A DNA stretch of 38,740 nt, from positions 1 to 38,740 of the IMG/VR virus record IMGVR_UViG_3300031460_000089. One strand, written 5' to 3'. Shown here piece after piece: positions 1 through 38,655 of this stretch (positions within the stretch are counted from its first letter, which is position 1; the number at the start of each line of letters is the position of its first letter). The position numbers and the translations under genes are program-made. The notes beneath the pieces are model-generated. The model did no database searches. It saw only the letters and a program-made list of their open reading frames with translations, and had not been told where the DNA came from. Source of the stretch: a virus. Its lineage: Duplodnaviria > Caudoviricetes.

Positions 1-324
1 TTACCGGCCAGTAGCTTCACGGACCGCAGAGCGCCGCGAATCGCGACCCTGACCTCCGCCGGGACCCTCGTCTCCGGCGGAGGCTTCACCTGTCTTCAGC
101 CACTCATACGACACTCCGGTGGTCAGCGACCACGCCAGCAGCGCCGGCCGCTTCGGGTCACCTGAGCCGCCCTCGTAGGCGCTGATCGACCGACGTGAAA
201 TTCCGGTCGCCTCAGCTAGTTCCTGCTGGCTCAAGGCTGCGTTCTCTCGCGCTTTGCGCAGTCGATCGGCCAGCGTCCAGGACGGCACTCTTCCGGCCTG
301 AAGGCCGTCACGCGCGGTAGTCAT
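1..324 (-). CDS. XRE-family HTH immunity repressor, prophage (truncated) form, 107 aa
   Basis: LADRLRKARENAALSQQELAEATGISRRSISAYEGG is an XRE HTH; divergent from a Cro/Xis-like gene. ATG at 324 preferred because of a leaderless-type promoter upstream. Confidence 0.92.
   Translation of the reverse strand: MTTARDGLQAGRVPSWTLADRLRKARENAALSQQELAEATGISRRSISAYEGGSGDPKRPALLAWSLTTGVSYEWLKTGEASAGDEGPGGGQGRDSRRSAVREATGR
2..15 (+). repeat. Putative attL core TACCGGCCAGTAGC, inside the repressor 3' end
   Basis: Identical to 38642-38655; contains TAC-N6-GTA symmetry; overlaps the last repressor codons. Confidence 0.85.
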
Positions 325-423
325 AAGGGCAATGGTGCACTCCTGCGCCAACCTGCGCAAGCGATCAAGAAAACATTCATGCGCACTCTTGCGTCACACT
401 GCCGTACGTGCAAGACTGCTCAT
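325..423. promoter_or_regulatory. Divergent promoter/operator region of the genetic switch
   Basis: Minus strand: TTGCGC-N17-CACCAT-N7-ATG(324). Plus strand: TTGCGT(389)-N17-AAGACT(412), with TGN extension, -N6-ATG(424). TGCGCA palindromes at 354, 380 and 425. Confidence 0.65.
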
Positions 424-627
424 ATGCGCACAATCGCCGATCTGCTCACAACCGCTCAGGTGGCAGAGCGCTACAACGCTAGCGTCGCCACCGTCAACAA
501 GTGGGCTGCCTCCGGGAAACTCCCGGTCGCGCTCACCGTGCCCGGAGGTCGTCTCTACGACCCCGACGAAGTTGCCCGCTTCATGTCCACCCAGACCCGG
601 CTCATCCGTGTGGCAGGTGCGGCGTGA
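424..627 (+). CDS. Cro/excisionase-like HTH DNA-binding protein, 67 aa
   Basis: LLTTAQVAERYNASVATVNKWAASGKLP...GGRLYD resembles MerR/HTH_17 Xis-type proteins; first rightward early gene; ends in AA. Confidence 0.85.
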   Translation: MRTIADLLTTAQVAERYNASVATVNKWAASGKLPVALTVPGGRLYDPDEVARFMSTQTRLIRVAGAA

Positions 628-1046
628 GGACCGCAGGCCTGCCGCTGAACATGCAAGCAAAGATCCTGCTCACCACCGATGGCTGCTGGTACTGGACGGG
701 TGCCGTGACGTCCAAGGGCTACGGATCGGTTGCGGCCGGCGGCAAGGTCGTTAGCACCCACCGCCGCGCCTACGAGTTGCTTGTCGGCCCGATTCCAGAC
801 GGCCTGCAGATCGACCATCTCTGCGAGAACAAGCGGTGCTGTAATCCGGCCCACCTCGAAGCGGTCACCGGCCTGGTCAACATGTCCCGGACTGCCCAGG
901 CGCGGAAGACGCACTGCATCAACGGGCATCCGTTGTCCGGCACCAACCTACTGATCAAGCCGCGTGCCAACGGCAAGGTAATCCGCAACTGCCGGACCTG
1001 CCGCGACGACCAGCGCAATGCCTCACGCCAGAAGCTCGCGTCGTGA
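624..1046 (+). CDS. HNH endonuclease with C-terminal Zn-binding motif
   Basis: CWYWTG...GYG...HRRAYE...IDHLC...CCNPAHLE followed by HCINGH...CRTC; GTGA overlap with the upstream gene. Confidence 0.9.
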   Translation: MRTAGLPLNMQAKILLTTDGCWYWTGAVTSKGYGSVAAGGKVVSTHRRAYELLVGPIPDGLQIDHLCENKRCCNPAHLEAVTGLVNMSRTAQARKTHCINGHPLSGTNLLIKPRANGKVIRNCRTCRDDQRNASRQKLAS

Positions 1047-1085
1047 TCGCTACCCCGGCCCGCAAAGCCTCCTGAAACGGCGAAC

Positions 1086-1108
1086 CGCCCCTGCTGTGAA
1101 CAGGGGCG
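1086..1108. terminator. GC-rich hairpin in the early intergenic region
   Basis: CGCCCCTG-N7-CAGGGGCG; a weak U-rich tail is present only on the minus strand. Confidence 0.4.
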
Positions 1109-1142
1109 CCGCAATCACCAACAACCAGAACGGAGCTTACCA

Positions 1143-1595
1143 ATGATCCCCACCAACGACCGGAGGTTCCCACCATGCTTACCTCAGTCCTCACCGCCTG
1201 CGGAATTTTCCTCTTCGGATGCCTCGGCATCGGAGAGCTCGCAGAGTGGTGTCTCCGACGCGCTGAAAGACGCCGAGAGCTATCGAAGAAGCGCCATCCG
1301 TCTTACCCGCGCGCAGCGGAACGTCGTCACGCTGGCGAACGCATTCAATAAGCAGAAGGACGACTTCGGCGTCGACCGGCTCCTCGCCGTCATCGACGCC
1401 ACCGCCGACCAGGCAGCGCACACCGAGCGGTTGCAGACCCTCGTGGACCTGCTGATGGCCGAGTGGCACGCCTCCAACAGCTACATCCGCGGCGAGTTCC
1501 CCAACGTCGGAGGCCCGGCGTGGCAGGCACGCGCTGACGCATCCGCAGCCGTCGCGCTCGGCCTCGTCGCGTACCGAACGGAGATGCAGGCATGA
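1143..1595 (+). CDS. Hypothetical protein, 150 aa
   Basis: GGAG RBS upstream, GC-rich third codon positions, ATGA overlap with the next gene. Confidence 0.65.
   Translation: MIPTNDRRFPPCLPQSSPPAEFSSSDASASESSQSGVSDALKDAESYRRSAIRLTRAQRNVVTLANAFNKQKDDFGVDRLLAVIDATADQAAHTERLQTLVDLLMAEWHASNSYIRGEFPNVGGPAWQARADASAAVALGLVAYRTEMQA
1175..1351 (+). CDS. Possible nested small membrane protein, 58 aa
   Basis: GGAGG RBS at 1162-1166; hydrophobic N-terminus MLTSVLTACGIFLFGCLGIG and basic tail; out of frame inside 1143-1595. Confidence 0.4.
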   Translation: MLTSVLTACGIFLFGCLGIGELAEWCLRRAERRRELSKKRHPSYPRAAERRHAGERIQ

Positions 1596-1999
1596 CCGCC
1601 ACTGAACCGGCAACGATGCCAGAGCTATTGCGGGCCGTTGCTGACCTGCTCGAAGCGCACCCGGACCTGCCGGTGCCGCAGGCCTCCGACGATGGTGTCC
1701 GTTGGTTCACAGCGCGCACTCCGACCGAAATCGCAAAGGTAATGCGAGCAGTGCAGGGGCCATGGGCGAAGAACGACCCGAATGCATCCGACTACGACCG
1801 AGGCTCCGCGACGTTCACCACCACGCTACTCGGCCACCCCTTCACCATTTACGTTGATCGCGGGAGTGTCTGCACACGCACGGTTGTCGGTACCCGTGAG
1901 GTCGTCAAGACCATCCCAGTGGCCACCGAAGAGGTCACCGTTACCGAAGACATCATCGAGTGGGAATGCCATTCCGTGCTCACCCAGGCGGGTGCCTGA
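1592..1999 (+). CDS. Hypothetical phage protein, 135 aa
   Basis: Start/stop overlaps with both neighbours; typical codon bias. Confidence 0.8.
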   Translation: MTATEPATMPELLRAVADLLEAHPDLPVPQASDDGVRWFTARTPTEIAKVMRAVQGPWAKNDPNASDYDRGSATFTTTLLGHPFTIYVDRGSVCTRTVVGTREVVKTIPVATEEVTVTEDIIEWECHSVLTQAGA

Positions 2000-2178
2000 T
2001 GGACCACGACCACGAGCCGACCCGCGCCATGGACCTCGACGAACGCTGCTCCGGACTCCGCGGCCAGCAGCACAACCCACAAGACCCCGGCTGCCGCGTC
2101 GCCTCCATCTTCGCAGACGGCAAAGGCTGGAACCGCTGCCACATCTGCCACCCCCAACCAGTTGGAGCAGTTGCATGA
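1999..2178 (+). CDS. Small Cys/His-rich hypothetical protein, 59 aa
   Basis: TGATG and ATGA overlaps; CHICH motif. Confidence 0.65.
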   Translation: MDHDHEPTRAMDLDERCSGLRGQQHNPQDPGCRVASIFADGKGWNRCHICHPQPVGAVA

Positions 2179-3110
2179 CCAGCCGCGAAGTGCTGCCCCC
2201 CAACGCTCCCCGTGACGTGTGGCTCGCCGCCCGCCGCAACGGCATCGGCGGGTCCGACGTGTCCGCCATCCTCGGTATGTCCCGCTGGTCCTCTGCCCGC
2301 TCAGTGTGGCTAGAGAAGCTCGGCGCACCAGAGCAGCCCGCGTCGTGGCCCATGATCCGCGGCAACCACCTCGAACCCGCACTGCGGGACTGGTACACCG
2401 CAGAGACCGGTGTGCCAGTCGTCCAGGTTGGCCTGCAGCAGCACGTCGATGAGCCGTGGATGCAGTACAGCCCAGACGGCTTCATCGGCCAGTTCGGGCT
2501 ATTCGAGGGCAAGACGACCAGCTTCTTCATGCGCGACGAATGGGACGAGGAGCAGGTCGCCGACCACGCCGAACTGCAGGTGCAATGGGGCCTGCTGGTG
2601 ACCGGCCGGCTGTGGGCTGACGTCGTCGTCGCAATCTCCGACGACGACCCCGTCATCCGCCGCGTCTACCCCGACAAAGGCCTGCAGTCGTCGATCCGTG
2701 AGGCGTGCCAACAGTTCTGGAACGTCAACGTCGCCGGCCGGGTCGAGCCGCCGGTCACCTGGGTCGACGCCGACGCCATCAAAAAGAAATACCCGACCGT
2801 CGAGAAGACGGTCCACGTCGGCGACTCCGACCTGGACGAGGCGACGAAAACCTACCAGCACGCCGCGCAGGTGGTGAAGGACTACACCCAGATCAAGGAC
2901 ACCGCCGCGACTGTCATACGCAACGCCATGAAAACCGCCGACCACCTGGTGATCAACGGCGAGACCGCCGCCACCTGGAAGCAACAGAGCGCCCGCGTCG
3001 TCGACATGGAAGCGCTCGCAGCTGATGTCGACATCGAGCAGTACCGCAAGGACCGCACCAGCCGGGTCCTGCGCATCCCGAAAGCCCGCAAAGAATTCAA
3101 GGAGAACTGA
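2175..3110 (+). CDS. YqaJ-like (lambda-exo/RecE-type) recombination exonuclease
   Basis: WLAARRNGIGGSD, RGNHLEP, SPDG...EGKT and QVQW motifs; directly upstream of RecT. Confidence 0.93.
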   Translation: MTSREVLPPNAPRDVWLAARRNGIGGSDVSAILGMSRWSSARSVWLEKLGAPEQPASWPMIRGNHLEPALRDWYTAETGVPVVQVGLQQHVDEPWMQYSPDGFIGQFGLFEGKTTSFFMRDEWDEEQVADHAELQVQWGLLVTGRLWADVVVAISDDDPVIRRVYPDKGLQSSIREACQQFWNVNVAGRVEPPVTWVDADAIKKKYPTVEKTVHVGDSDLDEATKTYQHAAQVVKDYTQIKDTAATVIRNAMKTADHLVINGETAATWKQQSARVVDMEALAADVDIEQYRKDRTSRVLRIPKARKEFKEN

Positions 3111-3970
3111 TGGGCACCAACCTCACCGCCAGAGCAGCAGGCGCAGTGGCACAGCAGCAGAACGACGGCAAGCCGACCCTGGTCCAGTTGATCGAGCAGA
3201 TGAAGCCGCAGATCCAGCGGGCCCTACCGAAGCACATGGACGCCGACAAACTCGCGCGGATCGCCCTCACCGTGCTGAGGCAGACCCCGAAACTTGCGCA
3301 GTGCTCGGCTGAGTCGTTCCTCGGCTCGCTCCTCACCTGCGCGCAGCTCGGATTGGAACCGGGACCGCTCGGTGAGGCATACCTGGTGCCTTTCGGCAAT
3401 GTGTGCACGTTCATACCTGGATACAAAGGCCTTTTGAAATTGGCTTGGCAGTCGAATCAAATGCGCACCTTCCAGGCGCATGTGGTCCGGGACGGTGACA
3501 TGTTCGATTACGAATTTGGACTGGAGCCGTTTCTGCGTCACAAGCCCACCCGTGAGACACCCGGCAAACCGACCGACATCTATGCGGCGGCGACGTTCCT
3601 GAACGGTGGATCTGCGTTCGAGGTCCTGTCGGTGCCCGACGTCGAGCTGATCCGGAAGCGATCGAAGACACCGAACGCTGGCCCTTGGGTGAGCGACTGG
3701 AATGAGATGGCGAAGAAGTCGGTCATCAAACGGCTGGTCAAGCTGCTGCCGCTGTCCACCGAGTTGCAGCAACTACAGCGGGCGGTGCAGCTCGACGGGT
3801 CCAGCCGTGTCGACCTCGCACCGATCACTGAAGCCGCCGTCGATTACGTCGACACTGACGATGCTGCGATCGAACCTGGGTCACCCGCGCCGGCCACGAC
3901 GGACGAGCCGTATGACGCTGAGGCTGAGGCCGCCGCGATGTGGGACGCCACGAACGAGCCGCCAGCATGA
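3110..3970 (+). CDS. recT: RecT single-strand annealing protein
   Basis: ALPKHMDADKLARIALT...CAQLGLEPGPLGEAYLVPF...GYKGL...GPWVSDWNEMAKKSVIKRLVKLLPLS; acidic tail. Confidence 0.95.
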   Translation: MGTNLTARAAGAVAQQQNDGKPTLVQLIEQMKPQIQRALPKHMDADKLARIALTVLRQTPKLAQCSAESFLGSLLTCAQLGLEPGPLGEAYLVPFGNVCTFIPGYKGLLKLAWQSNQMRTFQAHVVRDGDMFDYEFGLEPFLRHKPTRETPGKPTDIYAAATFLNGGSAFEVLSVPDVELIRKRSKTPNAGPWVSDWNEMAKKSVIKRLVKLLPLSTELQQLQRAVQLDGSSRVDLAPITEAAVDYVDTDDAAIEPGSPAPATTDEPYDAEAEAAAMWDATNEPPA

Positions 3971-4335
3971 GCGCCGAGCTTGTAGGGCCGGTCGCGACAG
4001 TGCATTTCACCGGCGGCCCGCGTGCCCGCGACCGGTTCAACTATCCACGGGTGGCTTACAGTCGGCCGCGGAATACCATAGACCCCCGGCATGACGCCTG
4101 CACCGACCATCACGTCGCATGCGACTGCCGGGAAGCGCTGTTCGCCGAGAATGAGTCGGAGGCGCGAAGCGAGTTCGGCGCCATACAGAAGGCGTTCGAG
4201 GCAATCCTCGCCGGGCATGACACCCATGGCACCGACGACGGCCGCCCGGGTTGCCTGTGCACCGGCTGTCAGATCGCGCGCCGCGCGCATATCTATGTCG
4301 GCAACGCTTACCACAGCCCAGTGGCCGACCGATGA
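3967..4335 (+). CDS. Hypothetical Cys/His-rich protein
   Basis: ATGA overlaps; CTDHHVACDC and CLCTGC motifs. Confidence 0.75.
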   Translation: MSAELVGPVATVHFTGGPRARDRFNYPRVAYSRPRNTIDPRHDACTDHHVACDCREALFAENESEARSEFGAIQKAFEAILAGHDTHGTDDGRPGCLCTGCQIARRAHIYVGNAYHSPVADR

Positions 4336-4508
4336 CCGCCGAGGCGAGCGCGCTGGGTGCGCTCATCGACGAGGCGGAAGTGGACTGGCTACGGGACGCG
4401 CTCCACGCCGTTACCGGGATCTGCGCACACCACTCCGGCGCGTTCACCAACCAAGTAATCGAAGCCCTTTTCTACGAGTTGGCCCCAATTGAAGGAGAAG
4501 ACCAGTGA
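4332..4508 (+). CDS. Hypothetical protein, 58 aa
   Basis: ATGA/GTGA coupled in the early operon. Confidence 0.65.
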   Translation: MTAEASALGALIDEAEVDWLRDALHAVTGICAHHSGAFTNQVIEALFYELAPIEGEDQ

Positions 4509-4660
4509 GCAGCTTACGGATTCGCCGTGTACGCAACCTGTTCCGGGTCGAACGGAACTTCGGTCGTGGCCAGGTGTTGGTGGTCGATCGGTTCACAACG
4601 CGACAGGCGGCAGAGAACTTGATCGCATATCTGAAAGCACATGACAGGACGGGACTGTGA
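4505..4660 (+). CDS. Hypothetical basic protein, 51 aa (not in ORF track)
   Basis: GTG after an AAGGAG RBS; MSSLRIRRVRNLFRVERNFG...DRTGL fills the gap with overlaps at both ends. Confidence 0.65.
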   Translation: MSSLRIRRVRNLFRVERNFGRGQVLVVDRFTTRQAAENLIAYLKAHDRTGL

Positions 4661-4857
4661 TGGCATCCGGCAGGGGCCTCGATGACCGCGAGCCGAAACC
4701 GAAGGCCGATTGGCAGACCGAGGCCGGCTACCCGTCGAGATGCCCCGAGTGCGGTGACTGCGACTGGCCGTGCGACGACTGCTACGACGCCGGCACCGCT
4801 TTCGACGACGACTCTTACCGCGACCTGATCATCGACGACCAGATGGGTGTCCGATGA
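4660..4857 (+). CDS. Small Zn-binding hypothetical protein
   Basis: CPECGDCDWPCDDC; coupled overlaps. Confidence 0.65.
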   Translation: MASGRGLDDREPKPKADWQTEAGYPSRCPECGDCDWPCDDCYDAGTAFDDDSYRDLIIDDQMGVR

Positions 4858-5030
4858 ACGACGACGATCCGTGTTCGCGTTGTGAGGGCTGCGGCCAAAT
4901 CGCAGACACCGACGACGGGGAGCCGTGGAGCTTCTGGCTGGACTTGCCATTGCGGTCCGCAGCAGCCGTGACGCTCGGATTGGTTAGGCCGATCGACTGC
5001 CCCTCCTGCAACGGGGTGGGGTCCCGATGA
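4854..5030 (+). CDS. Small Zn-finger protein with DnaJ-type CxxCxGxG motifs
   Basis: CSRCEGCG and CPSCNGVG; ATGA overlaps. Confidence 0.7.
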   Translation: MNDDDPCSRCEGCGQIADTDDGEPWSFWLDLPLRSAAAVTLGLVRPIDCPSCNGVGSR

Positions 5031-5221
5031 CCGCCCCCCGTGGCATTCTGCGGCTCATCCCGTCAACGTTTGAGGCGTACGCCGAGCCCGATTTCGACAT
5101 CGACCTGGGCACGTTCGACAGCGACGACCTGTGGGGCTTCCCGCCGTTCGCGTGGCGCCTCCCCGCCGCCGCGTTGGCTGTGGGCATCGCCGCCGGGTGG
5201 CTGCTACGAGGTGCCCGGTGA
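5027..5221 (+). CDS. Small protein with C-terminal transmembrane segment
   Basis: Hydrophobic LPAAALAVGIAAGWLL; coupled overlaps. Confidence 0.65.
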   Translation: MTAPRGILRLIPSTFEAYAEPDFDIDLGTFDSDDLWGFPPFAWRLPAAALAVGIAAGWLLRGAR

Positions 5222-5562
5222 CCGCCGACTACGTGATGGTCCCGTGCATCCTCTGCGGCCGGGAACGCCCCATCCTCACCGGAACCAACATCCGCGTCTG
5301 GGCCGCGTGGCGACGCCCATGCAAAGCCTGCCACGTCCAAGCCAACCTGAGGAACCTCACCAGCGCCCACCAAGACGAGGTCGACGAGGTAGCCGTCCAA
5401 CGCCTCATCTCCGGGCAGCCACCCGCCCACACCACCCGCGCGGAACGCCAACTCGCCGTCCGGCAACTCCTCACCCACCGCATGACCAACCGGGAAATCG
5501 CCGAACGTCTGCACCTCGCCCAACGCACCGTTGAACGGCTCCGCGCCCGGGCCGCGTCATGA
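5218..5562 (+). CDS. Zn-finger plus HTH DNA-binding protein
   Basis: CILC...CKAC, then MTNREIAERLHLAQRTVERLR (HTH). Confidence 0.75.
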   Translation: MTADYVMVPCILCGRERPILTGTNIRVWAAWRRPCKACHVQANLRNLTSAHQDEVDEVAVQRLISGQPPAHTTRAERQLAVRQLLTHRMTNREIAERLHLAQRTVERLRARAAS

Positions 5563-5732
5563 CCACCAAACCGAAGCTCGACCCCGCCCGCGCCGCCCTC
5601 CGCCAGGTCGAAGCGCAGCAGGTCGCCTGCCCACGCTGCCGAGCCGCTGTCGGCGTCCCCTGCCGGTCGCTCGACGGCAAGGACATCGCGTATCACCCCG
5701 AGCGGTACGCCCGGCACCGGAACGGATGGTGA
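5559..5732 (+). CDS. Small Zn-finger protein, 57 aa (not in ORF track)
   Basis: MTTKPKLDP...ACPRCRAAVGVPCRS...YHPER; ATGA overlap. Confidence 0.7.
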   Translation: MTTKPKLDPARAALRQVEAQQVACPRCRAAVGVPCRSLDGKDIAYHPERYARHRNGW

Positions 5733-5734
5733 CC

Positions 5735-6169
5735 ATGGCTGAGCTGTTCATCCCCGGCACTCCCGTCCCCCAGGGCTCCATGAAGGCGTTTGCCTACCAG
5801 CCGAAGGGCGGCGGCCGGGCCCGCGCATCGGTCACCTCCGACAACGGCAAGACGATGCCGTGGCGCTCCCAGATCGCCGCCACCGTCCGCCAGCACGTCG
5901 GCGAGCACATCGTGTGCCCCGAAGGCCCTGTGAGCCTCACGTTGCTGTTCGTGATGCCACGCCGGGCCGCCGAGCCGAAACGTGTCACACCCGCCCACAC
6001 CCGCAAGCCGGATGGGGACAAACTCACCCGTGCTGTTTGTGACGCCCTTTCCGGGCTGATCTACACCGACGACGCCCAGATCGTCGCCTGCACCTATCAA
6101 AAGCGCACTGCAGCTATTGGGGAGCAGCCCGGGCTGCACCTGCAATGGTGGTCGGCAGAGGCGTTCTGA
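5735..6169 (+). CDS. rusA: RusA-like Holliday junction resolvase
   Basis: IPGTPVPQGS and KPDGDKLTRAVCDALSGLIYTDDAQIV catalytic motif. Confidence 0.92.
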   Translation: MAELFIPGTPVPQGSMKAFAYQPKGGGRARASVTSDNGKTMPWRSQIAATVRQHVGEHIVCPEGPVSLTLLFVMPRRAAEPKRVTPAHTRKPDGDKLTRAVCDALSGLIYTDDAQIVACTYQKRTAAIGEQPGLHLQWWSAEAF

Positions 6170-6202
6170 TGACGAAATATCAACGGAGAGTGAGGATTCG
6201 CG

Positions 6203-6290
6203 TGATAGAATCGGGGCGGCCCCGGAGAGCACTGGACATGCTCAATCCGGGACCTAACTCCCCTGCTAGCACAGGAAGGAGCTGCCTGTC
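6203..6290 (+). promoter_or_regulatory. Promoter and structured leader of the HNH gene
   Basis: TGN-TAGAAT at 6203-6211; hairpin 6221-6251; second hairpin 6258-6281 pairs the GGAG RBS. Confidence 0.55.
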
Positions 6291-6908
6291 ATGGTAGCCA
6301 ACTCCGAACCAACCCGTAAGCCGATCTCCAAAAGGCTGCGATTCGAGATCCTCCGCCGGGACAACCACGCTTGTCGGTACTGCGGAGGCGTGGCGCCTGA
6401 TGTGAAGCTCACCGTGGACCACGTCCTACCCATAGCCCTTGGTGGAACCGACGATGCCAGCAACCTGGTCGCGGCCTGCGCGGACTGCAACGCAGGCAAG
6501 TCCAGCAGCAATCCCGACCAGCAGATCATCGCGCAGGTATCAGAGGACGCACGCCGATGGGCCAACGCAGTTAAGGCGTCTGCCATGGTCATCGAGCAGG
6601 AGCACGAAGCCATCCACGATTACGTCAGCGAGTTTACCGACCTTTGGGCCTCCTACGACTATGGCCACAATCGGGAATACTCAATTCCGATGGACGACAA
6701 TTGGCGAAATGCCATCGAGACTTTCTACAAACGGGGGCTACCAATCAACGTGCTTCTGTCTTCTGCGCAGATAGCCCTGGAAAATCAACGCATCGGAGCC
6801 AATGCAGCGTTCCGATACTTCATGGGCATCGCCTGGAACCGGCTCACTGACATCGAGGCACTCGCTAAGCAGGTCTACGACATCCAGATGAGCACATCCG
6901 ATGAGTGA
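6291..6908 (+). CDS. HNH endonuclease-domain protein
   Basis: RFEILRRDNHACRYCG...VDHVLP...GG...NLVAACADCNAGK; lower-GC C-terminal domain. Confidence 0.9.
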   Translation: MVANSEPTRKPISKRLRFEILRRDNHACRYCGGVAPDVKLTVDHVLPIALGGTDDASNLVAACADCNAGKSSSNPDQQIIAQVSEDARRWANAVKASAMVIEQEHEAIHDYVSEFTDLWASYDYGHNREYSIPMDDNWRNAIETFYKRGLPINVLLSSAQIALENQRIGANAAFRYFMGIAWNRLTDIEALAKQVYDIQMSTSDE

Positions 6909-7335
6909 CGGCCAGCCAAGTTCGTTCGACGATCGGATCTATATCCGGCTCGATCAGGGCATGCCCGAGAACCGCAAGATTGTCGGCCTGTCAGATTCCG
7001 CGTTCCGGCTATACATCGAGGCGATCTGTTGGTGCTCGCGTCAACGCTCGAACGGCGCCATCCCACCGGCTGCCCTGAAGAAGCTGGGACCAGCCCGAGC
7101 CGTCAAGGAGATAACCACTGGCCCCGGCGCCCTGCTGGAGTCAGACGGAGACAGCTGGTGGGTGCACGACTACCTGCAGCACAACAGGTCCTCGACCGAG
7201 ATCGACGTAATCAAGGAGGCTAAATCCGATGCTGGAAACAAAGGTGCACATGCCCGTTGGCACGTGGGGCGCCGCAAGCCGGACCCCAAGTGCGATCTGT
7301 GTTTCCCGGCTCTCAAGGTGGCGTCAGGTGGATAA
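6901..7335 (+). CDS. Putative replication initiator (replisome-organiser-like N-terminal domain)
   Basis: YIRLDQGMPENRKIVGLSDSAFRLYIEAICWCSR...WWVHDYLQHN resembles actinophage initiators (recalled, not searched); followed by origin-like DNA. Confidence 0.7.
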   Translation: MSDGQPSSFDDRIYIRLDQGMPENRKIVGLSDSAFRLYIEAICWCSRQRSNGAIPPAALKKLGPARAVKEITTGPGALLESDGDSWWVHDYLQHNRSSTEIDVIKEAKSDAGNKGAHARWHVGRRKPDPKCDLCFPALKVASGG

Positions 7336-7521
7336 CAGCCAGATGGCACATGCCATGCGCGGCGCATGCGATAGCCATTGCGTAGGCAATGGCGAATCGG
7401 TGCGATGCGATAGCAAAGACAGTTACAGTTACAACAACAGTTACAGTTACAGCTGTTTAAGAGCTAAATGCTTAACTCATCGACATAACGATACGTTAGT
7501 AACGCGAGGGCCTCGATCGAT
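7336..7521. other. Candidate replication origin
   Basis: Clustered palindromes (7343-7356, 7354-7368, 7374-7393), ATGCGATAGC twice (7366, 7405), ACAGTT-like hexamer array 7419-7454, then AT-rich DNA. Confidence 0.65.
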
Positions 7522-7899: not shown

Positions 7900-8405
7900 C
7901 CCGCGCAGAAGCCACCGACCCGCGTATCGAGGCGGTCACCAGGGTGTTGTGCGGGATCGAAGGCAACGATCCGCACACGACCGATCTGGTCATCTATCGC
8001 AACATGGCTCGGTACGTCCTGAAAGCGGCCGACGAGGCTACCCATGAGGTATCGCAAGTGACCCGCCCATGGTCGCCGGCCGAGATCGCCGGGGCGAAAG
8101 CGATTCCACTTCCACTTCTCAGTTGGGCGAATTTGACGCCCGCATTCCAGAATTGGTGCCTCGGCACCGCCCGCGCCGTCCTCGACGCTGCTGGCACCGG
8201 GCTGCGCGCCGAGATCGCCGCCGAGCCAACCCCGGACTGCGCGAACTGCGGCCACCAGAGGGACCGCCACGGCAAGAGGGAAGTCACGTTCGGAGGGACC
8301 CGGCTCGAAGAGTTCTGCATTCACGGGTACCTCACCGATGTCCAATGTGAATGCACGGCCTATTCCGTGCAGGTCCGTGGCGCCGGGGCAGGTGAGCAGG
8401 AATGA
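7896..8405 (+). CDS. Hypothetical protein with C-terminal Cys/His motif
   Basis: AGGAG RBS; CANCGH...H...C...CEC. Confidence 0.7.
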   Translation: MTRAEATDPRIEAVTRVLCGIEGNDPHTTDLVIYRNMARYVLKAADEATHEVSQVTRPWSPAEIAGAKAIPLPLLSWANLTPAFQNWCLGTARAVLDAAGTGLRAEIAAEPTPDCANCGHQRDRHGKREVTFGGTRLEEFCIHGYLTDVQCECTAYSVQVRGAGAGEQE

Positions 8406-9548: not shown

Positions 9549-9587
9549 ACCCCCGCATCTGCGCTAACAGACCGGGGGCGTGGCCGC

Positions 9588-10946: not shown

Positions 10947-10957
10947 TGTGGAACGTC

Positions 10958-16321: not shown

Positions 16322-16509
16322 ACCGCATCGAGCATTACATCGCCGCCGACCAGATCCTCGCCAAGGTGAACGACGTTCACCCCACGATGGTCGAGTCCTA
16401 CCTCGCTGAGGCCCACATCCATGCGCTGCTCGCCACGGCTGCGGTTGAGCCGCCGACGATTCCCATGCAGCGAAGCCGCACAGAAGAATGGTTGGAGGCA
16501 TCACGATGA
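16318..16509 (+). CDS. Small hypothetical protein, 63 aa
   Basis: ATGA overlaps on both sides. Confidence 0.7.
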   Translation: MNRIEHYIAADQILAKVNDVHPTMVESYLAEAHIHALLATAAVEPPTIPMQRSRTEEWLEASR

Positions 16510-17153
16510 CCGTCACCGGTATCAACTCGACGCAGCAACACCGGGCACAAGCCGTCCTCAACCGCACCGCCGCCCGCGGTTTCCCCGCCGCAGCCGGCCG
16601 GATCGCGATCGCGGTGTGCCTCACCGAATCGTCGCTGCTGATGTACGCGAACCGCAACAACCCGGCCTCGATGGCCATCCCGCACGACGCGGTTGGGCAG
16701 GACCACGGCTCGGTCGGCCTGTACCAGCAGCAGGTCGGCGGCGCAGTCAACTCCACCGCCAACTGGGGCACCACCCAGGAATGCATGGACGTCACCCACT
16801 CCACCGACAGTTTCCTCAACGCCCTGAACCGGCTTCACGGCTGGCAGAACATGCCCACATGGCAGGCCGCGCAGGAAGTGCAGGGCAGTTTCGACCCGAC
16901 CGGCGGCAACTACAAGCGGAACATGACCCTGGCCAGTTCGATCGTTGACGCGTTGTGGCCGCAGCCAGCGCCGCAGCCGGCATCCGCGACGCACACGCAG
17001 GTCGGCAGCTACACCGTGCAGTCCGGCGACAGCCTGACGACGATCGCCTACCGGTACCCGGAGGCGTGGATCACCGCCGGCAGCATCACCACCCTCAACA
17101 ACCTGTCCGACCCGAACGCGATCTTCCCGGGTCAAGTTCTCCGCATTGGCTAG
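16506..17153 (+). CDS. Lysozyme-like domain plus LysM peptidoglycan-binding protein
   Basis: TESSL...DHGSVGLYQQ...WG...MD putative catalytic domain; C-terminal YTVQSGDSLTTIA...NNLSDPNAIFPGQVLRI LysM. Confidence 0.82.
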   Translation: MTVTGINSTQQHRAQAVLNRTAARGFPAAAGRIAIAVCLTESSLLMYANRNNPASMAIPHDAVGQDHGSVGLYQQQVGGAVNSTANWGTTQECMDVTHSTDSFLNALNRLHGWQNMPTWQAAQEVQGSFDPTGGNYKRNMTLASSIVDALWPQPAPQPASATHTQVGSYTVQSGDSLTTIAYRYPEAWITAGSITTLNNLSDPNAIFPGQVLRIG

Positions 17154-31980: not shown

Positions 31981-32255
31981 CCTACCTCGACGACATAGCT
32001 GCCGCGATCATGGCGCAGGCAGGCCCATACAGCCCCGTGAAGGTGGGGAAAGTCGAGTCGGCCTCGGCCGATTCGAGCGGTGCCCGCACCGTCACGGTCA
32101 GCTTCGACGGCAGCGCCTCGGCGCCCGCCACCTGGTCGTCGGCGTTCGACGTCGCCATGGCCACCAAGGGCTACCCGGCCGTCACGGGAATGAAAGTGCT
32201 TCTCCTGTTGCCCTCCGGGCAACCGTTCATATCCGACATCATCATCGGGAGCTGA
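31977..32255 (+). CDS. Small minor tail protein
   Basis: ATGA overlap; small beta-rich protein after the hub. Confidence 0.7.
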   Translation: MTYLDDIAAAIMAQAGPYSPVKVGKVESASADSSGARTVTVSFDGSASAPATWSSAFDVAMATKGYPAVTGMKVLLLLPSGQPFISDIIIGS

Positions 32256-32259
32256 CACC

Positions 32260-32916
32260 ATGCCCAGTAACACACTGATATCCGCGCTGCCCTATGCGGC
32301 CGGACCTGACCAGCCGTCGATCCCGTTCCACACCAACAACTTGGCGCAGAAGCTGGACCCGCTGGTCATTCCGCCGTTCGGGTCCGCAGCTGCCAGGGAC
32401 GCAGTGATCACCGCCGCGGTTCGCGCAGCCGCACCGAACGGCGGGGAAGGACTGCACAGCTACATCGTCAACTCCGGCATGTGGGAGTACGACGGCGTCA
32501 CCTGGCAGCCGATGGGTTTGCGGGTCGCGCTGTCCCGCACCTACCACGACGTGACCGCGCTCTCGAACTCCACCTCACCAGGCGCCGTTCCCGGTTTGCA
32601 CGGCCAACAGTTCACCCTCAACCGAAGCCGGACCTGTCGGGCCACCATCACCAACTTCCAGATCTCCGGGGCCGCCGGTGACCAGTGGCAGTTCTACGTG
32701 AATCAGGACGGCGGACCGATTGTCATCATGGCCCAGAACGTGTTCGTCAACTCAGGGGGCGCCGGGTCGCAGCGCATGACCATGCAGTCGGCGCCGTTCC
32801 CCTTGACCGCAGGGACCCACGCGATGGGCGTCTACATCCTCCGCGCATCCGGCACGGGCGGCTACGTCACCCTGCTCGACGCGACCCTCACCATCACCGA
32901 CGAGGGGCCGGCATGA
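32260..32916 (+). CDS. Minor tail protein
   Basis: LPY...LAQKLD...FGSAAARDA...YDGVTW and a beta-rich C-terminus. Confidence 0.75.
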   Translation: MPSNTLISALPYAAGPDQPSIPFHTNNLAQKLDPLVIPPFGSAAARDAVITAAVRAAAPNGGEGLHSYIVNSGMWEYDGVTWQPMGLRVALSRTYHDVTALSNSTSPGAVPGLHGQQFTLNRSRTCRATITNFQISGAAGDQWQFYVNQDGGPIVIMAQNVFVNSGGAGSQRMTMQSAPFPLTAGTHAMGVYILRASGTGGYVTLLDATLTITDEGPA

Positions 32917-33557
32917 CCGTCGACGACCCTTCGCTCTTGCAGCCGAAATCGGATCCCACAGTTCGCACAAACGAGGCGGTCAAAGCTGCGACCGAGCAGT
33001 TGCGCCGGGAGCTGCAAAGCATGAGGGAAATTCTCGAGACGCGCCTCGATGCGATCGATACCGCGACGACCCTGCGGCTGCAAGGCTACGACGCTCAACC
33101 TGCGGCTATCGAGCGGGCAGTCAGGCAATTGGAGGAATTAACCGATGAAAAATTTGCATCCATCACGCAAACTTTTCACGAGCGAGATGTTCGCCTTAAC
33201 GAAACGGCCGTAGCATCGAAGCAAGCAATTGATGCAGCATTGCAAGCCGCGAAAGAATTGGTGGGGCAGCAGAACAATTCGAATGTGGAGGCCGCAGCGA
33301 AGGCGGAAAGGGCATTCACCAAACAGATCGACCAAACATCGGTGCTCATCAGCGCGCTGGAAAAAGGGTTGACCGACCGCATCCTCGAACTGAAGGAGCG
33401 GATGGACCGGGGCGAAGGCTCCATGCTGGGCACCTCTGCGACTCAGGTGCAGCACCGCGCGGCGACCAGCATCGCATGGCAGATCGCCGCCGCGGTCGGT
33501 GGGTTCGCGGCCCTCGCGCTCGGCATCCTCTCCGCCATCCTCGCGATGAAACCGTAA
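32913..33557 (+). CDS. Coiled-coil protein with C-terminal transmembrane anchor (lysis-associated)
   Basis: Long heptad region ending IAWQIAAAVGGFAALALGILSAIL; precedes the endolysin. Confidence 0.75.
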   Translation: MTVDDPSLLQPKSDPTVRTNEAVKAATEQLRRELQSMREILETRLDAIDTATTLRLQGYDAQPAAIERAVRQLEELTDEKFASITQTFHERDVRLNETAVASKQAIDAALQAAKELVGQQNNSNVEAAAKAERAFTKQIDQTSVLISALEKGLTDRILELKERMDRGEGSMLGTSATQVQHRAATSIAWQIAAAVGGFAALALGILSAILAMKP

Positions 33558-33673
33558 TTCAACTACCGGTCACTCATGACCTCAACCCTTTATCAGCCCG
33601 GACCGATCGGCGAAGGCTACGACGGCCCCCGATGGCCGTGGCTGACCGGACCCCAACCCAAGAGAGGAACACC

Positions 33674-34717
33674 GTGCTCACTGAAAACGGATTCACCGCA
33701 GACAGCCCACTCGTCAACGCTGTCCGCCCCGCCTACGGATACGCACCAGGCGACAGCTCCCGCCACTTCAACCAGGACAGCATCGACGTCAAGGCCGGAG
33801 TCGTCCACTCCGTAGAGTGCCGCCTCGGTGACATGATGTCCGGGCCGGACGGGTCCGACAGCGGCCTCCTCGGCGACGACTGGATGGATCAGCAGAGCAC
33901 CGAAGCCTCCGTTCACTACGGCACCGACCCGGACCACACCGTTCAAGGCGTCAAAGAGAAGGACGGATGCTGGGGCGCCGGGCCCAACGCCAACGCGATC
34001 GGCATCCACTGCGAGCAGACCGGGCAGGCCGCGATGTCCCGCGACGAATGGACAACCCCGGATGCGATGAAGCAGCTGCGCCGCACCGCAGCGCTGTTCG
34101 CCGATGTCTTCACCCGGCACGGAATCCCGTTCCAGTGGGCGACTGACCTGCAGATCCAGTCCGCCGCCGCCGGCGGGCCCGCGTGCGGCCTCACCTACCA
34201 CGAGGACTGGACCCGGAACTTCCCGGGCGACACCACCCACACTGACCCCGGCCCCGGGTTCCCCGGCAAGCCGATCGGCCCGTACGTCCCTGGGCAGACG
34301 GACCTGTCCGGGGATCTGCTGCTGCCGCTGATGAAGCAGTACGCGGCAGGCACCTCCGGTTCCACCCCCGTTACCCCAACGATCCCGCTCACCCCCGACG
34401 CACCGGCCCCGGTGCTCGTGTTTCCGCCCCCACCACCGAAGGAATGGTCAGACATGGCATCGAAGGAAGACATCCAGGCCGCGATCGCCGCAGCCCTCAA
34501 AACCGACACCCACACCAATGCGTCCGGCTGGAACGTGTTCGCACCCAACGGTCGCGGCATCGGCGCATCCGTGAACGGGTCCCGCGTCTGGTCGGGACTC
34601 ACCCCGCAGTCCTGGCAGGCGCTGCAGAAGGCCTGCGCCGCAGCCGGCCAGACCTATCTCAACTGGGGGAGCCTGCCGTCCGATCAGGTTCTCCGTCTCT
34701 TCGGAAAGCAGGTCTGA
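33674..34717 (+). CDS. Endolysin, N-acetylmuramoyl-L-alanine amidase (Amidase_2 type)
   Basis: GAGAGG RBS; VVHSVE, SVHY, WGAG..AN..GIHCE, HTDPGPGFP; Pro-rich linker then a C-terminal domain. Confidence 0.88.
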   Translation: MLTENGFTADSPLVNAVRPAYGYAPGDSSRHFNQDSIDVKAGVVHSVECRLGDMMSGPDGSDSGLLGDDWMDQQSTEASVHYGTDPDHTVQGVKEKDGCWGAGPNANAIGIHCEQTGQAAMSRDEWTTPDAMKQLRRTAALFADVFTRHGIPFQWATDLQIQSAAAGGPACGLTYHEDWTRNFPGDTTHTDPGPGFPGKPIGPYVPGQTDLSGDLLLPLMKQYAAGTSGSTPVTPTIPLTPDAPAPVLVFPPPPPKEWSDMASKEDIQAAIAAALKTDTHTNASGWNVFAPNGRGIGASVNGSRVWSGLTPQSWQALQKACAAAGQTYLNWGSLPSDQVLRLFGKQV

Positions 34718-34719
34718 TC

Positions 34720-34977
34720 ATGAACTGGGGATACGCGAACAAGACCATTGCGGCGCTGGTCACCGCGTTCGGCGGCGCATACGCCACGGCGAACCTCGAC
34801 GGTGTTGTGACTGGCAGCGAATGGGTCGCCATCGTTGTTACCACGGTCGTCGCTGTCGGTGCGGTGTTCACCATCCCGAACGCGCAGGGCGAGCCGAAGC
34901 CCGAGCCGCTGGTCCTCGACCCCACCGATGGTGTCCTGGTCTTGCCGGAACCCGGCGGGAAGCATACCGCCGCATGA
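34720..34977 (+). CDS. Holin
   Basis: 85 aa, two hydrophobic segments (KTIAALVTAFGG; EWVAIVVTTVVAVGAVFTIPN), directly after the endolysin. Confidence 0.8.
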   Translation: MNWGYANKTIAALVTAFGGAYATANLDGVVTGSEWVAIVVTTVVAVGAVFTIPNAQGEPKPEPLVLDPTDGVLVLPEPGGKHTAA

Positions 34978-35297
34978 TCCTCCGGCCCGGAGCCAATTAC
35001 GTGAAGACCGGCACCGGGCCGGTCACCGCCGTCCTCCCGCCGGGGCAACCCGTGGGCACCATCATCACCGTCCAGAAGGCAGACGAATCCGACTACGCCA
35101 TCACAGTCTTCGGCAACGTCAAAGGCGCCTACGCCGGGCTGCCGCTCCTGCATCAGTCCTCGGATGCGCTGCAGTTCAAGGCCGCCGCTGACGGGTCGTG
35201 GTGGCCGGTCACCAACGACCCGAACCAAAGCAGCGCGGGCTCCGCGGCATTCACCCCCGACACGGCCCATCCCGGCCTCTACATATTAGGAGCCTGA
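34974..35297 (+). CDS. Small putative tail-appendage protein, 107 aa
   Basis: ATGA overlap; C-terminal TPDTAHPGLY motif shared with 29936-30856. Confidence 0.7.
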   Translation: MILRPGANYVKTGTGPVTAVLPPGQPVGTIITVQKADESDYAITVFGNVKGAYAGLPLLHQSSDALQFKAAADGSWWPVTNDPNQSSAGSAAFTPDTAHPGLYILGA

Positions 35298-35301
35298 CCC
35301 C

Positions 35302-37098
35302 ATGGCCGTTGAATTCGTCACGGTGAACGGCACAACATCACCTCCCTTCCAGCTCCCCGCGGTTGTCCTGACGGCACTCGAAACAGTTCTCGCACCCTTG
35401 GCCTCCCCGACCCTCACCGGGACCGTCACCGTGCCGACGCCGACAGCCGCGGGGGCCGCCGCGACGAAGGGTTACGTCGACTCGTCCAAACTCGTCTACA
35501 ACGTCAAGGACTACGGCGCGGTCGGTGACGGCACCGCAGATGACACAGCAGCCATCCAGGCCGCCATCAACGCGGCCGCTGCCGGCTACAAGGGGCAAGT
35601 ATGGGTGCCACCTGGGACATACCTCCACACCGGCGTGACGATCCCCTCGGATGGCGTCTCGATCGTCGGCGTCGGTCCGAACGTCTCAATCCTGCGGTGC
35701 AACCACGCAACCAACGACATGATCACAGCCACGGGCGTGTCATTCGTGCAACTTCGACACCTGCAACTAGAGTCGACCAGCGCCAGCCGCACCGCTGGTT
35801 CTCACTTGAAATTCACGAACGTCCTCCAGTACCTGCTGGACGATATTCGGTTCTTGGGCGGCCCAACATTCGGAACATTCAACGGCTGCCAGATCGGCTA
35901 CGTCTCTCGTATCCGCTGGGCAGCCTACGTCACTCCGCTACTGGATTTGTTCTACTGGGTCGGCTGCACCTCCACCTACTTGGATAGCGTGATTGGCAGC
36001 CTCGGGAATATGGTGGTCCCTACGGGGCATGCCGTCTATCACTTTGATTCCAATTGCGACACGATCCGGGCGACGTTGGTGGGCACCGCTCAGGGGCTCA
36101 GCGGTGGCGGGGTCAGCTTGTGGTTCTCCAACACACAGGCCAACTCGTTCGCACCTCGTTGGGTTTTCCTGTCCGACTGCTACTTCGAGGCCGGCGCCCC
36201 CGGCGACGTGAACGGCACACCATCCGTCGTCATCGACAACACGCTCGCCTTCCGCGCCACGAACCTCTACGTCGCATCCGCTATTCAAGGCATCGTCATC
36301 AACGGCGGAAGCGACATGCGATTCGTCAACGCCATGGTGCTGAACCATTCGCAGGAAGGGTTCAGGATCAACGGCGGCGACCTGATCAGTATCACGCAAA
36401 GCACAATCTCCGATACCTCCCAGGCCACCACCAACACCTACTCAGGTATCTACATCGGCGCAGCAGCAGGGCGGGTGGCCATCTCCGACAGCTACATCGG
36501 GGACAAACTCATCGGCGCAGCCAACAAGATGAAATACGGGATCGAGAATAACGCGCCGGTCGTCACGCAGCGCGGCAACACCTTCGAGCACCAAGCCACC
36601 GGCGCAATAGGTGGCATCGGAGGGACCGCCGCATTCCGGGACAACGCCGGGAACAGCGCCCTCGAATTCACCGGTGCCGGGTCCGTGCAAATCAACAAGC
36701 CCACCGTGTGGGCCTTTGCGAACGGCGGGAACTCCGATGCTTTCTGGATGCTGGGAAGTACGGGCGGCGCCTACCGGTTCTTCAATGTCGGCGGGTCCGC
36801 CGAATTGGCGCGCATCAGCCAGGACGGCGCGCTGTCGCTGTTCAGCACAGCCGCCACCCCCGCCGCCATCGCCGGGCAGGCCCGGTTCTTCTCCTCCGGC
36901 GGTATCCCGAAGGTTGTCACCGGAGCCGGCGCGGTCATCGACCTGTCGGTTGCCAGTGCAGCGGCCAAGTTCGCGACAGCGGCCAGGCCATCAGCGGCGA
37001 CCGCGGGTGCCGGCGCCTCGATCTACGACACCACGCTGTCCAAGCCGGTCTGGTCTGACGGCACCGCATGGCGGGACGCAACTGGCGCTGCCGTCTAG
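35302..37098 (+). CDS. Tailspike / depolymerase with right-handed beta-helix (pectate-lyase-like)
   Basis: YNVKDYGAVGDGTADDTAAIQAAINAA...VWVPPGTY, repetitive beta-strand pattern, C-terminal YDTTLSKPVWSDGTAWRDATG. Confidence 0.88.
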   Translation: MAVEFVTVNGTTSPPFQLPAVVLTALETVLAPLASPTLTGTVTVPTPTAAGAAATKGYVDSSKLVYNVKDYGAVGDGTADDTAAIQAAINAAAAGYKGQVWVPPGTYLHTGVTIPSDGVSIVGVGPNVSILRCNHATNDMITATGVSFVQLRHLQLESTSASRTAGSHLKFTNVLQYLLDDIRFLGGPTFGTFNGCQIGYVSRIRWAAYVTPLLDLFYWVGCTSTYLDSVIGSLGNMVVPTGHAVYHFDSNCDTIRATLVGTAQGLSGGGVSLWFSNTQANSFAPRWVFLSDCYFEAGAPGDVNGTPSVVIDNTLAFRATNLYVASAIQGIVINGGSDMRFVNAMVLNHSQEGFRINGGDLISITQSTISDTSQATTNTYSGIYIGAAAGRVAISDSYIGDKLIGAANKMKYGIENNAPVVTQRGNTFEHQATGAIGGIGGTAAFRDNAGNSALEFTGAGSVQINKPTVWAFANGGNSDAFWMLGSTGGAYRFFNVGGSAELARISQDGALSLFSTAATPAAIAGQARFFSSGGIPKVVTGAGAVIDLSVASAAAKFATAARPSAATAGAGASIYDTTLSKPVWSDGTAWRDATGAAV

Positions 37099-37141
37099 CG
37101 CGTCCGGCTGGCCACCGAACGACGGTGCCACGCCGGTGCCC

Positions 37142-37183
37142 GCCCCCCGTCACCCTCGGTGGCGGGGGGCTCTTTTGCGTTTT
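37142..37183 (+). terminator. Intrinsic terminator ending the late operon
   Basis: GCCCCCCGTCACC-CTC-GGTGGCGGGGGGC followed by TCTTTTGCGTTTT, between convergent genes. Confidence 0.85.
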
Positions 37184-37667
37184 AGCCCCACTGCCCGATG
37201 GTCGTGCACACCTTTTGCACCGCCGCGTATTTCACGAACAGATCTTTCACGTCAGCATTTGTGATGGCCGACATGTCAGCAAAGGTCTCGACCGTGGCGT
37301 TCAGAGCGTTCACCGCGGTGGCCACCTCGTGGCCAGCCGATCCGCTGGTGATGTTGAGCTTGGCGTAGTCGTTCACCGGCTGGTAGTAGGTCAGCGGGTT
37401 GGTTGTCTTTTGGTCAAGCTCGTGCAGCTGGAGAATCAGGCCCGATTCGAACCCGTTTCTGACGGCGTGACAGACCGCGCTGTCAGCGGGGTTGGCAGCT
37501 GAACTGGAAACGGAACTGGCAGGTGCAGCCGCGGTTACCGTGGAAACTTCGGTTCGGGTCGCTGTTCTCGTGACGGTCATGGTCGTTGGAGCGGCAGCCT
37601 GAGTGCTGCCACACGCAACCAATCCCGCTGCCATGAGAACGAGGGCTGCACTGCGTAGAACTGTCAT
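37182..37667 (-). CDS. Lipoprotein, candidate lysogenic-conversion or superinfection-exclusion factor
   Basis: Signal peptide with lipobox LVAC, Thr/Ser/Ala linker, helical domain with two Cys; GAAGGA RBS; downstream of int. Confidence 0.8.
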   Translation of the reverse strand: MTVLRSAALVLMAAGLVACGSTQAAAPTTMTVTRTATRTEVSTVTAAAPASSVSSSAANPADSAVCHAVRNGFESGLILQLHELDQKTTNPLTYYQPVNDYAKLNITSGSAGHEVATAVNALNATVETFADMSAITNADVKDLFVKYAAVQKVCTTIGQWG

Positions 37668-37720
37668 CGTGATCCTTCAGTCGGGAGACTGCAGTATGAG
37701 CCACGAACGCCGTCAGTGCG

Positions 37721-38542
37721 CTAGCTCGTCTCCGGGAGACCGGCGTCCCACGCACCAACGGCATGGCGCGCTGTCTCCGAGTTCGGCTTCACATAGATGG
37801 CGGTGCTCGTCGGGGACGCGTGACCCATCTGTTCCTGCACCAGGCGGATGTCGGAACTAACCCGGTAGAGCCCAGTGCCGTAGGTGTGCCGCAAGCTGTG
37901 GCAGGTCCATGGCATGTCCAACTCCCGGAAGTGGACCGATATCAGTTGGGTCACCCTGATCGGCTTCACCTCCCACAGCCGGCCCTTGAGCCGCATGAAC
38001 GGTTTAAGCCGAGAGACCAGGCCGCCACCAATCAGCACCGTCCGGTCACGGCCGCCCTTGCCGTCCCGCACCTCGATCAGCATCTGGTCCAGATCGACGT
38101 CCTCCGCGCGGAGCCGGGCGATCTCACCAGCCCGCAAACCTGAGAACGCTGCGAGCGCCAGCCACGTCTGAATACGCGGTCGACCAGCTAGGATCGCAGT
38201 CATCACGTCTTTGATTGGTGCGGGCCGTGGCCTCCCCACCGGGGCCTTCACTACCTGGACGGCTTCGCGCATCGTGTGATCGCATGCACGACCCATCCGG
38301 CACCATTCGAGAAACGCCCGCAGTTCCCGCGCGTAGACGAACCGTGTCCATTGGTGCCGCTGCATGGTGCGGACCTGCCATGCGGACAGCTCCTCTGGTC
38401 GGCAGGTGAGGATCGGCTTCTGTAGGTCTCTGGTGATCGATGTTAAGGCGCTGACCCTGGTCCGAATGGTGTCCGGCCGAAGCCCCTTCACCCGCATGCT
38501 GTTTGCGTAGTCGGCAATCTCGTTGCCTGAGGTATTTAGCAT
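37721..38542 (-). CDS. int: Tyrosine integrase, short form without an obvious arm-binding domain, 273 aa
   Basis: GLRAGE (R), DGKGG (K), HSLRH, MGH and AIY catalytic set; ATG 38542 preferred because the longer ORF crosses attR. Confidence 0.93.
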   Translation of the reverse strand: MLNTSGNEIADYANSMRVKGLRPDTIRTRVSALTSITRDLQKPILTCRPEELSAWQVRTMQRHQWTRFVYARELRAFLEWCRMGRACDHTMREAVQVVKAPVGRPRPAPIKDVMTAILAGRPRIQTWLALAAFSGLRAGEIARLRAEDVDLDQMLIEVRDGKGGRDRTVLIGGGLVSRLKPFMRLKGRLWEVKPIRVTQLISVHFRELDMPWTCHSLRHTYGTGLYRVSSDIRLVQEQMGHASPTSTAIYVKPNSETARHAVGAWDAGLPETS

Positions 38543-38586
38543 GGGGCTAGTGTGGGGTATATCACTCGACTGGCCTAGCCCCGTGA

Positions 38587-38643
38587 TCAAGCTGCAACCT
38601 TCGCAGTTACCAAGCCGCCTCTGACCTGCATGTTTGCTAGATA
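38587..38643 (-). other. Detached 3' end of the repressor gene (YLANMQVRGGLVTAKVAA*)
   Basis: In frame with the repressor once the two att cores are joined. Confidence 0.85.
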
Positions 38644-38655
38644 CCGGCCAGTAGC
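38642..38655 (+). repeat. Putative attR core TACCGGCCAGTAGC
   Basis: Identical to 2-15; 100 bp upstream of the int start. Confidence 0.85.

Follow-up and report, generated by a model that had tools for sequence, protein, structure and literature searches.

The locus described here raises the question of whether a prophage can use the very act of its insertion to stabilize its own repressor. The window, by which we mean the whole analyzed stretch of 38,740 nt (it comprises the entire IMG/VR record IMGVR_UViG_3300031460_000089, classed as a provirus and 91% complete), carries a 38.6-kb prophage that looks complete, in which two minus-strand genes occupy the extremes, that of the immunity repressor on the left and that of the tyrosine integrase (Int) on the right. 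The prophage is bounded by a short direct repeat, one copy of which lies inside the repressor gene. We consider it very probable that integration, which takes place at the end of a host gene for RNase D, trims the phage's own repressor and gives integration-dependent immunity.

The repeat, TACCGGCCAGTAGC, is 14 nt long and occurs on the plus strand at 2-15 (the left prophage junction, attL) and at 38642-38655 (the right junction, attR), and nowhere else when both strands are searched. The first 200 and the last 300 bases share no longer match, the runner-up having 9 nt. A shared 14-mer was found in 11 of approximately 200,000 random pairs of 20 nt and 150 nt; the placement of the core at both ends is thus unusual. 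The preliminary description of this DNA had reported the repeats at these positions, which the repeat search confirms, and had proposed, with one flanking base in sight, that they represent an attachment core inside the repressor gene. Both flanks and the empty bacterial attachment site (attB) have now been recovered, and the empty site and attL in other assemblies bear this proposal out.

Part of the right end is present in 19 rock-metagenome runs, six of which (X1-X6) were examined. All four runs examined at the right end (X1, X2, X3 and X5) contain the empty site, that is, a non-phage left flank followed by the core and the right flank of the window. The base adjoining the core is T in each of them, matching base 1 of the window. 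The independence of these runs is limited: X1 is possibly the source of the window itself, and the 2022 runs possibly belong to one campaign. In X1 the empty-site piece measures 46 letters, exactly as predicted for 31-letter words unique to the empty site; its depth is 78 versus 14 for the prophage, values which give no share of cells. attL was found in three of the four runs examined at the left end, X4 having no record at 1-45. The left-end records of X1 and X3 begin 15 letters to the left of base 1, as expected of a branch off the host flank of the empty site, and the attL record of X6 extends 16,093 letters further to the left of base 1. A metagenome scan further yielded one contig with the empty site, JAABUK010000051.1 (hereafter L101). 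It has the same flanking T, and to the right of the core its first 40 bases are all equal to those of the window, where the right flank (38656-38740, plus strand) is intergenic host DNA. The core is therefore the attachment core, and crossover falls inside its 14 nt. The preliminary description had also asked whether phage genes continue to the left of base 1 or the excision junction lies elsewhere; the DNA to the left is host RNase D, and the junction lies within the core. The strict attB pattern gave 0 matches in GTDB genomes, and the core pattern gave 97 in viral contigs, none with matching flanks, Int or repressor, which we take as chance.

Some variation surrounds the right junction. Variant lysogens carry A at 38657, two bases to the right of the core. 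The X1 host contig departs from the window at 38697 and 38714, and L101 does so around a duplication of 9 nt (38704-38721). The differences at 38657 and 38697-38725 are host strain variation or an assembly slip. The T38657A change suggested a 7-bp overlap in which a mismatch is tolerated, with host-type bases remaining at attL; attL of X3 has 0 differences from window 1-45, and we rejected this idea.

What the crossover does to the repressor follows from reading both states. As integrated, the gene is a minus-strand open reading frame (ORF) from 324 to 1 that encodes a 107-aa repressor of the XRE/helix-turn-helix (HTH) type (Pfam HTH_19, 1e-15; phrog_2328 repressor, 5e-24) ending in EATGR and the stop codon TAA. 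The third base of this stop is supplied by the host-derived T at position 1, which was T in all four runs and in L101 and which on the plus strand occupies the second position of a Val codon of RNase D. When the ends are joined, the phage base gives TAT (Tyr) instead, and the protein continues to 125 aa, ending in GRYLANMQVRGGLVTAKVAA (...KVAA) with its stop at 38589-38587. Insertion removes an 18-residue C-terminal tail; its 3´ remnant stays at attR (38587-38643, minus strand), while the phage side of the phage attachment site (attP) consists of the repressor codons just before the core (16-45). The single-base switch between TAA and TAT, the two protein lengths and the distal stop were reproduced just as first described.

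The long form is also met in nature. The 90% cluster of the 107-aa repressor holds a second member, P0232, from JGI/IMG and Logan (2 contigs, the longest of 40,078 bp). This protein has 125 aa, is equal to the joined reading except for Q92H and has the same tail with the ...KVAA end; the loss of this end on integration, another early claim, is thus upheld by the joined reading and by a natural protein. Because assembly words are usually longer than the 14-nt repeat, we infer that P0232 reflects real attP DNA. Among the three minus-strand frames at attR, the repressor frame alone has an AA end. By analogy with related phages, the 18-residue tail is likely to be a destruction tag. Many repressor homologs contain stretches like CAIRDSNPEPAD or LPRLDSNQQP, which we take to be tRNA-derived attP cores read as protein.

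On the host side, the core in L101 takes in the final codons and the stop codon, TAG, of a gene for a 438-aa RNase D (3´-5´ exonuclease with HRDC and C-terminal domains). Because this stop codon (12-14 in the window) lies inside the core, the C-terminus of RNase D is unchanged by insertion and reads ...QVTGQ in both the empty and the lysogenic state. In the lysogen the RNase D and repressor genes meet tail to tail. Beyond the core, a thiolase gene starts after approximately 200 nt in L101, followed by a 725-aa ORF that by eye resembles a fatty-acid oxidation subunit. No tRNA or Rfam family matched the window end or L101, and attB is not a tRNA gene. The host is likely a Nakamurella-like rock bacterium, because the nearest named RNase D homologs are from Nakamurella (79-81% identity for the best two); one member of the RNase D 90% cluster is labelled Nakamurella sp. 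as well. A 17,806-bp Logan contig, equal in size to the X6 attL record, is listed as carrying an RNase D of the same cluster, which is a circumstantial tie. Sampling of 301 genomes of the class (best RNase D identity 64%) and of two orders (39 and 58 genomes) did not reach Nakamurella genomes; five of the sampled genomes carried an unpublished flag and are used for no claim. The QVTGQ end recurs in RNase D of Nakamurella sp. UYEF19 and is missing in two strain variants (P0058, P0194, P0195), as if DNA rather than protein were conserved there. Three genes upstream of RNase D, L101 carries an MsrB-like gene (recognized by eye; 7942-8364, minus strand). The attB-8 site of Mycobacterium abscessus sits in the 3´ end of an MsrB-type gene (PMC8092301, PMC8707978), and the resemblance is probably a coincidence.

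In the circular form, the genes are arranged as cro <> rep - int, with rep and int co-oriented, adjacent and separated by 44 nt (38543-38586, minus strand; from the stop of the long repressor to the Int ATG at 38542). Divergent from rep, at 99 nt from its start, lies the gene of a 67-aa Cro/excisionase-like HTH protein (424-627, plus strand, alternative start at 379; Pfam HTH_17, phrog_66), which takes the cro position and would be the first lytic gene. The divergent control region between them (325-423) presumably contains operators and promoters. TGCGCA palindromes at 255, 354, 380 and 425, of which the middle two lie in this region, are candidate operators; they make up four of the 13 in the window, all within the first 430 bases. 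The hexamers CACCAT, AAGACT and CACACT were noticed by eye 6-7 nt before the ATG of rep, cro and int, respectively, as in leaderless promoters. The 44-nt spacer is flanked by an imperfect inverted repeat (38535-38550 and 38575-38590) which pairs the stop region of the long repressor with the Int start codon. A hairpin coupling Int translation to the long repressor was considered on this ground and found unsupported: the fold has z of -0.7, which is not significant, 47 of 200 shuffles are as good, and the variant C38582T breaks an end pair.

Int itself (37721-38542, minus strand; identified by Pfam, PHROG and alignments) has 273 aa and retains all six catalytic residues (R137, K162, H215, R218, H241 and Y250). 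PF00589 is its sole Pfam domain, and at sequence level no arm-binding domain was detected. Its residues 7-263 align with residues 3-267 of the prophi62-3 Int, which fits the earlier suggestion of an armless enzyme. Identity to the integrases of BPs, Whack and prophi62-3 is 29-31%. The family profile matches PDB 5vfz 'Gp33' (positions 17-268, E 3e-33), presumably the Brujita Int; XerC/XerA-like chains score equally or higher, so this comparison does not settle the subgroup. Upstream of its start, Int's reading frame meets no stop codon through attR as far as the final base of the window (339 codons, 37721-38740, minus strand), and a gene caller could overcall Int here.

From these elements we propose the following sequence of events. 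In the circle the 125-aa repressor would be degraded via its ...KVAA end in a ClpXP-type manner, as judged from BPs and its relatives. The armless Int would recombine simple sites in an undirected way, probably by binding 13-bp arms. After insertion the 107-aa repressor would be stable and would repress the rightward promoter; insertion would also cut int off from the repressor promoter. Rare accumulation of Int would then excise the prophage and restore the tag. The mechanism was tested in BPs (PMC3694055, PMC4557955), and the effect of truncation on the repressor was tested in CyranoPS (bioRxiv 10.64898/2026.10.29.762952).

Five observations weigh against this proposal. Firstly, no attP joint is present in the contigs of the four right-end runs, and contigs drop rare variants. 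Secondly, P0232 was seen at the protein level. Thirdly, promoter scans, including a sigma-70 scan of 325-423, gave 0 sites at threshold. Fourthly, the 424-627 protein matched both excisionase and regulator families, and its best PHROG match is 'excisionase and transcriptional regulator'. Finally, Int ends in GLPETS, as it does in three near-identical copies, and has no AA tag. Because this tag is missing, a step in which proteolysis of Int senses the state of the cell is not supported for this phage.

The last two observations lend themselves to an alternative which we regard as improbable, namely that integration trims and stabilizes the repressor without being the deciding sensor: Int would be stable, and the 424-627 protein would act as an excisionase, or another control would decide. 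Yet untagged integrases are found in published members (PMC8092301), and BPs Int ends in VAGF. The 424-627 protein holds the cro position, although no similarity to BPs Cro was seen, and Int has no detectable arm-binding domain for an excisionase to act with. Near Int relatives end in AS, A or AA, and the TS end may be a drifted tag. The proposal itself is favored by the Int family: an AA end occurs in 15 of the 54 Int proteins listed (that of the window included) and an A end in 29, versus 2 and 19 of 120 RNase D controls.

Another alternative is that attP is tolerated in the repressor gene's 3´ end but not used: the tail would be dispensable, both forms would work, and AA would be incidental. 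The tail is indeed short and lies beyond a low-complexity linker, the G+C content at its third codon positions is 0.50 versus 0.67 in the repressor body, and the full-length repressor of CyranoPS is still partly protective (bioRxiv 10.64898/2026.10.29.762952). We nevertheless find this account very hard to accept. AA ends occur in 14 of the 1,508 stop-delimited segments of the window in six frames, against 19 of the 33 homologs of the repressor. P0232 retains the whole tail, and for three variant lysogens no codon-changing difference is listed in 38587-38655, a stretch too short for significance. As for chance or an assembly artefact, with prophage boundaries elsewhere, the GC-rich window does hold 18 direct repeats of at least 15 nt, so that a 14-nt repeat alone is not rare, but other assemblies yielded the empty site, attL and also the 125-aa protein, which refutes this explanation.

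Integration-dependent immunity, with its key features as set out in PMC9934374, is thus the reading we retain. The attP core lies inside the repressor coding sequence, the 5´ part of which is found at attL and the 3´ remnant at attR, and the prophage repressor is shortened by a bacterial stop at attL. Membership of this family in the wider sense is well supported. The phage is not of the strict BPs type, because it has neither a tRNA site nor a tag on Int. As originally described, that type also does without xis, cII and cIII, with Int alone performing integration and excision; in this phage the 424-627 protein has its double match to excisionase and regulator families, and several early genes have no assignment. 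A three-gene switch with tagged Rep and Int was described for BPs (PMC3694055), and the switch of a single base between stop and sense, together with loss of the tag, has already been published (PMC9262239, Fig. 3 legend; PMC8092301). Like BPs (cluster G, int32-rep33-cro34), the phage has attP inside rep and the same gene order, and the first host base turns the third codon position into a stop. In BPs this is a Cys/TGA switch with attB in a tRNA gene (PMC9262239) and here Tyr/TAA; the two forms of BPs gp33 have 136 and 103 residues (PMC4557955), so that 33 aa are lost there and 18 here. Identity to BPs is 39% for the repressor (over 87 aligned positions of gp33, E 2e-14) and 29% for Int. The BPs core has 35 bp and lies in tRNA-Arg, in contrast to 14 bp at the RNase D end; BPs Int has 398 aa and is reported to be proteolytically tagged, whereas this Int has 273 aa and ends in PETS; and BPs Rep ends in DKAS, whereas this repressor ends in KVAA.

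Further features are shared with M. abscessus prophages. For the clusters MabC, MabH, MabK, MabN as well as MabO, integration-dependent immunity was predicted at non-tRNA sites with short cores (attB-8, -12, -13 and -14), the stop comes from the first bacterial base and the integrases have no ssrA tags, as here (PMC8092301). In Imm-24 of the same study, too, the repressor is AA-tagged and Int is untagged. In the prophi62-3 record, attP is annotated inside the repressor, and the prophi62-3 Int is 31% identical to ours. The site attB-8 is located in the 3´ end of the methionine sulfoxide reductase gene MAB_2979, and its use replaces 7 residues (PMC8707978), whereas RNase D is unchanged here; the host differs as well, being M. 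abscessus for the Mab prophages and Nakamurella-like for this one. Armless, 'simple' tyrosine integrases of the Brujita type (PMC8138268; CyranoPS) share the composition of core-binding and catalytic domains only. CyranoPS uses a 35-bp core in tRNA-Lys (bioRxiv 10.64898/2026.10.29.762952) in place of the RNase D site. An HTH<>rep-int cassette is shared with Gordonia and Rhodococcus phages for which this type of immunity is predicted (PMC5559632; Whack). In the literature searched, including PMC10654092 and the supplements of PMC8092301, we found no report of an attB in RNase D or of integration-dependent immunity in Nakamurella; subscription papers, the figshare tables of PMC5559632 and the PMC10654092 and bioRxiv supplements were outside this scope and may hold such a site.

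Close Int relatives were sought in GTDB genomes, with five distant loci as the only result, and in viral contigs, where scans gave distant relatives only. Of 141 Int-relative loci in viral contigs, six contain a repressor homolog and none RNase D or thiolase; use of the same site by relatives is not shown by them. In a crude test of the upstream DNA, 9 of 32 loci had a frame with an AA end; this test lacked a control and some loci were duplicates, and we do not count it as support. An Int of 81% identity (P0002) and an RNase D of 80% identity (P0074), which ends differently, are each recorded on a 5,684,855-bp contig, which may be a single complete genome that harbors a related prophage.

A related prophage at the same site probably carries another repressor. 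In X3 and X6, window 1-45 is kept and 46-710 (the N-terminal part of the repressor, the control region and cro) is replaced, in X6 by 686 other letters. The 30 replacement letters visible in X3 translate in frame as a similar Gly/Pro linker, and the last 15 repressor codons are kept in frame. A different repressor, likely of another immunity type, therefore appears to use the same attP tail.

The empty site has a further property. It forms a dyad of two 13-bp arms, which pair at 12 of 13 positions, around an 11-nt center (L101 4997-5033), the right arm (B´) of which corresponds to 38660-38672 (minus strand) in the window. On the phage side, a P arm at 38636-38648 (plus strand) is identical to the left dyad arm at 11 of 13 positions, and at four of the six outside the shared core; this suggests that the 13-bp arms are binding sites of Int, with the P arm as a candidate core-binding site. 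No P´ arm like the dyad arms was found on the phage side of attL, where the best score of 9/13 is within background. Folding of attB gave z of -1.5 in 81-nt context, and z of -4.6 only for a window chosen after the dyad was seen. An 11-nt half-site recurs 96 nt downstream, nearer the thiolase gene (L101 4904-4914). One might imagine one recombination with two switches: Int would have adopted a host operator-like dyad at the RNase D/thiolase junction as attB, and insertion would both stabilize the repressor and alter control of the fatty-acid oxidation genes, the latter via two changed bases of the left arm and via the 38.6 kb that then separate the thiolase-side genes from RNase D. We consider this extension unlikely.

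The phage body (624-37502, plus strand) contains a full tailed-phage gene set according to Pfam and PHROG scans: HNH, RecE/RecT, RusA, terminase, portal, capsid, tail, tape measure, endolysin and a tailspike-like protein. PHROG matches were obtained for 22 of the 28 ORFs scanned. There are two HNH genes (624-1046 and 6291-6908); a muralytic-like protein lies within the head module (16488-17153; PHROG matches to endolysin/transglycosylase), and the tailspike, at 35302-37098 after the endolysin, is pectate-lyase-like. No close relative was found among isolated phages, for at the DNA level the head module's best match has 15% coverage and 64% identity; the best repressor and Int matches among them are all from actinophages, every one below 60% protein identity. 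Just downstream of int is a variable slot (37155-37593), in which X3 and X5 have 522 other letters and X2 differs too. Its 161-aa ORF (37182-37667, minus strand) has no Pfam or PHROG match; such a slot is a typical place for an accessory or defense gene expressed in the lysogen. The right end of the record may simply be a contig end.

Taken together, the mechanism itself is known; new here are the host, the RNase D site, the 13-bp attB dyad and a related prophage that joins the same attP tail to another repressor. The prophage provides a well-documented natural case, in which attB, attL, attR and the long attP-encoded protein all come from environmental data. This relative indicates that the specificity of immunity can be exchanged with the recombination-and-tag module kept in place. 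The RNase D site leaves the host protein intact and could serve a Nakamurella integration vector. The combination of an AA-tagged repressor with an untagged Int makes a simple system for asking what limits integration without an ssrA-like tag on Int. If the two-switch idea were true, insertion would also change the control of host fatty-acid oxidation genes.

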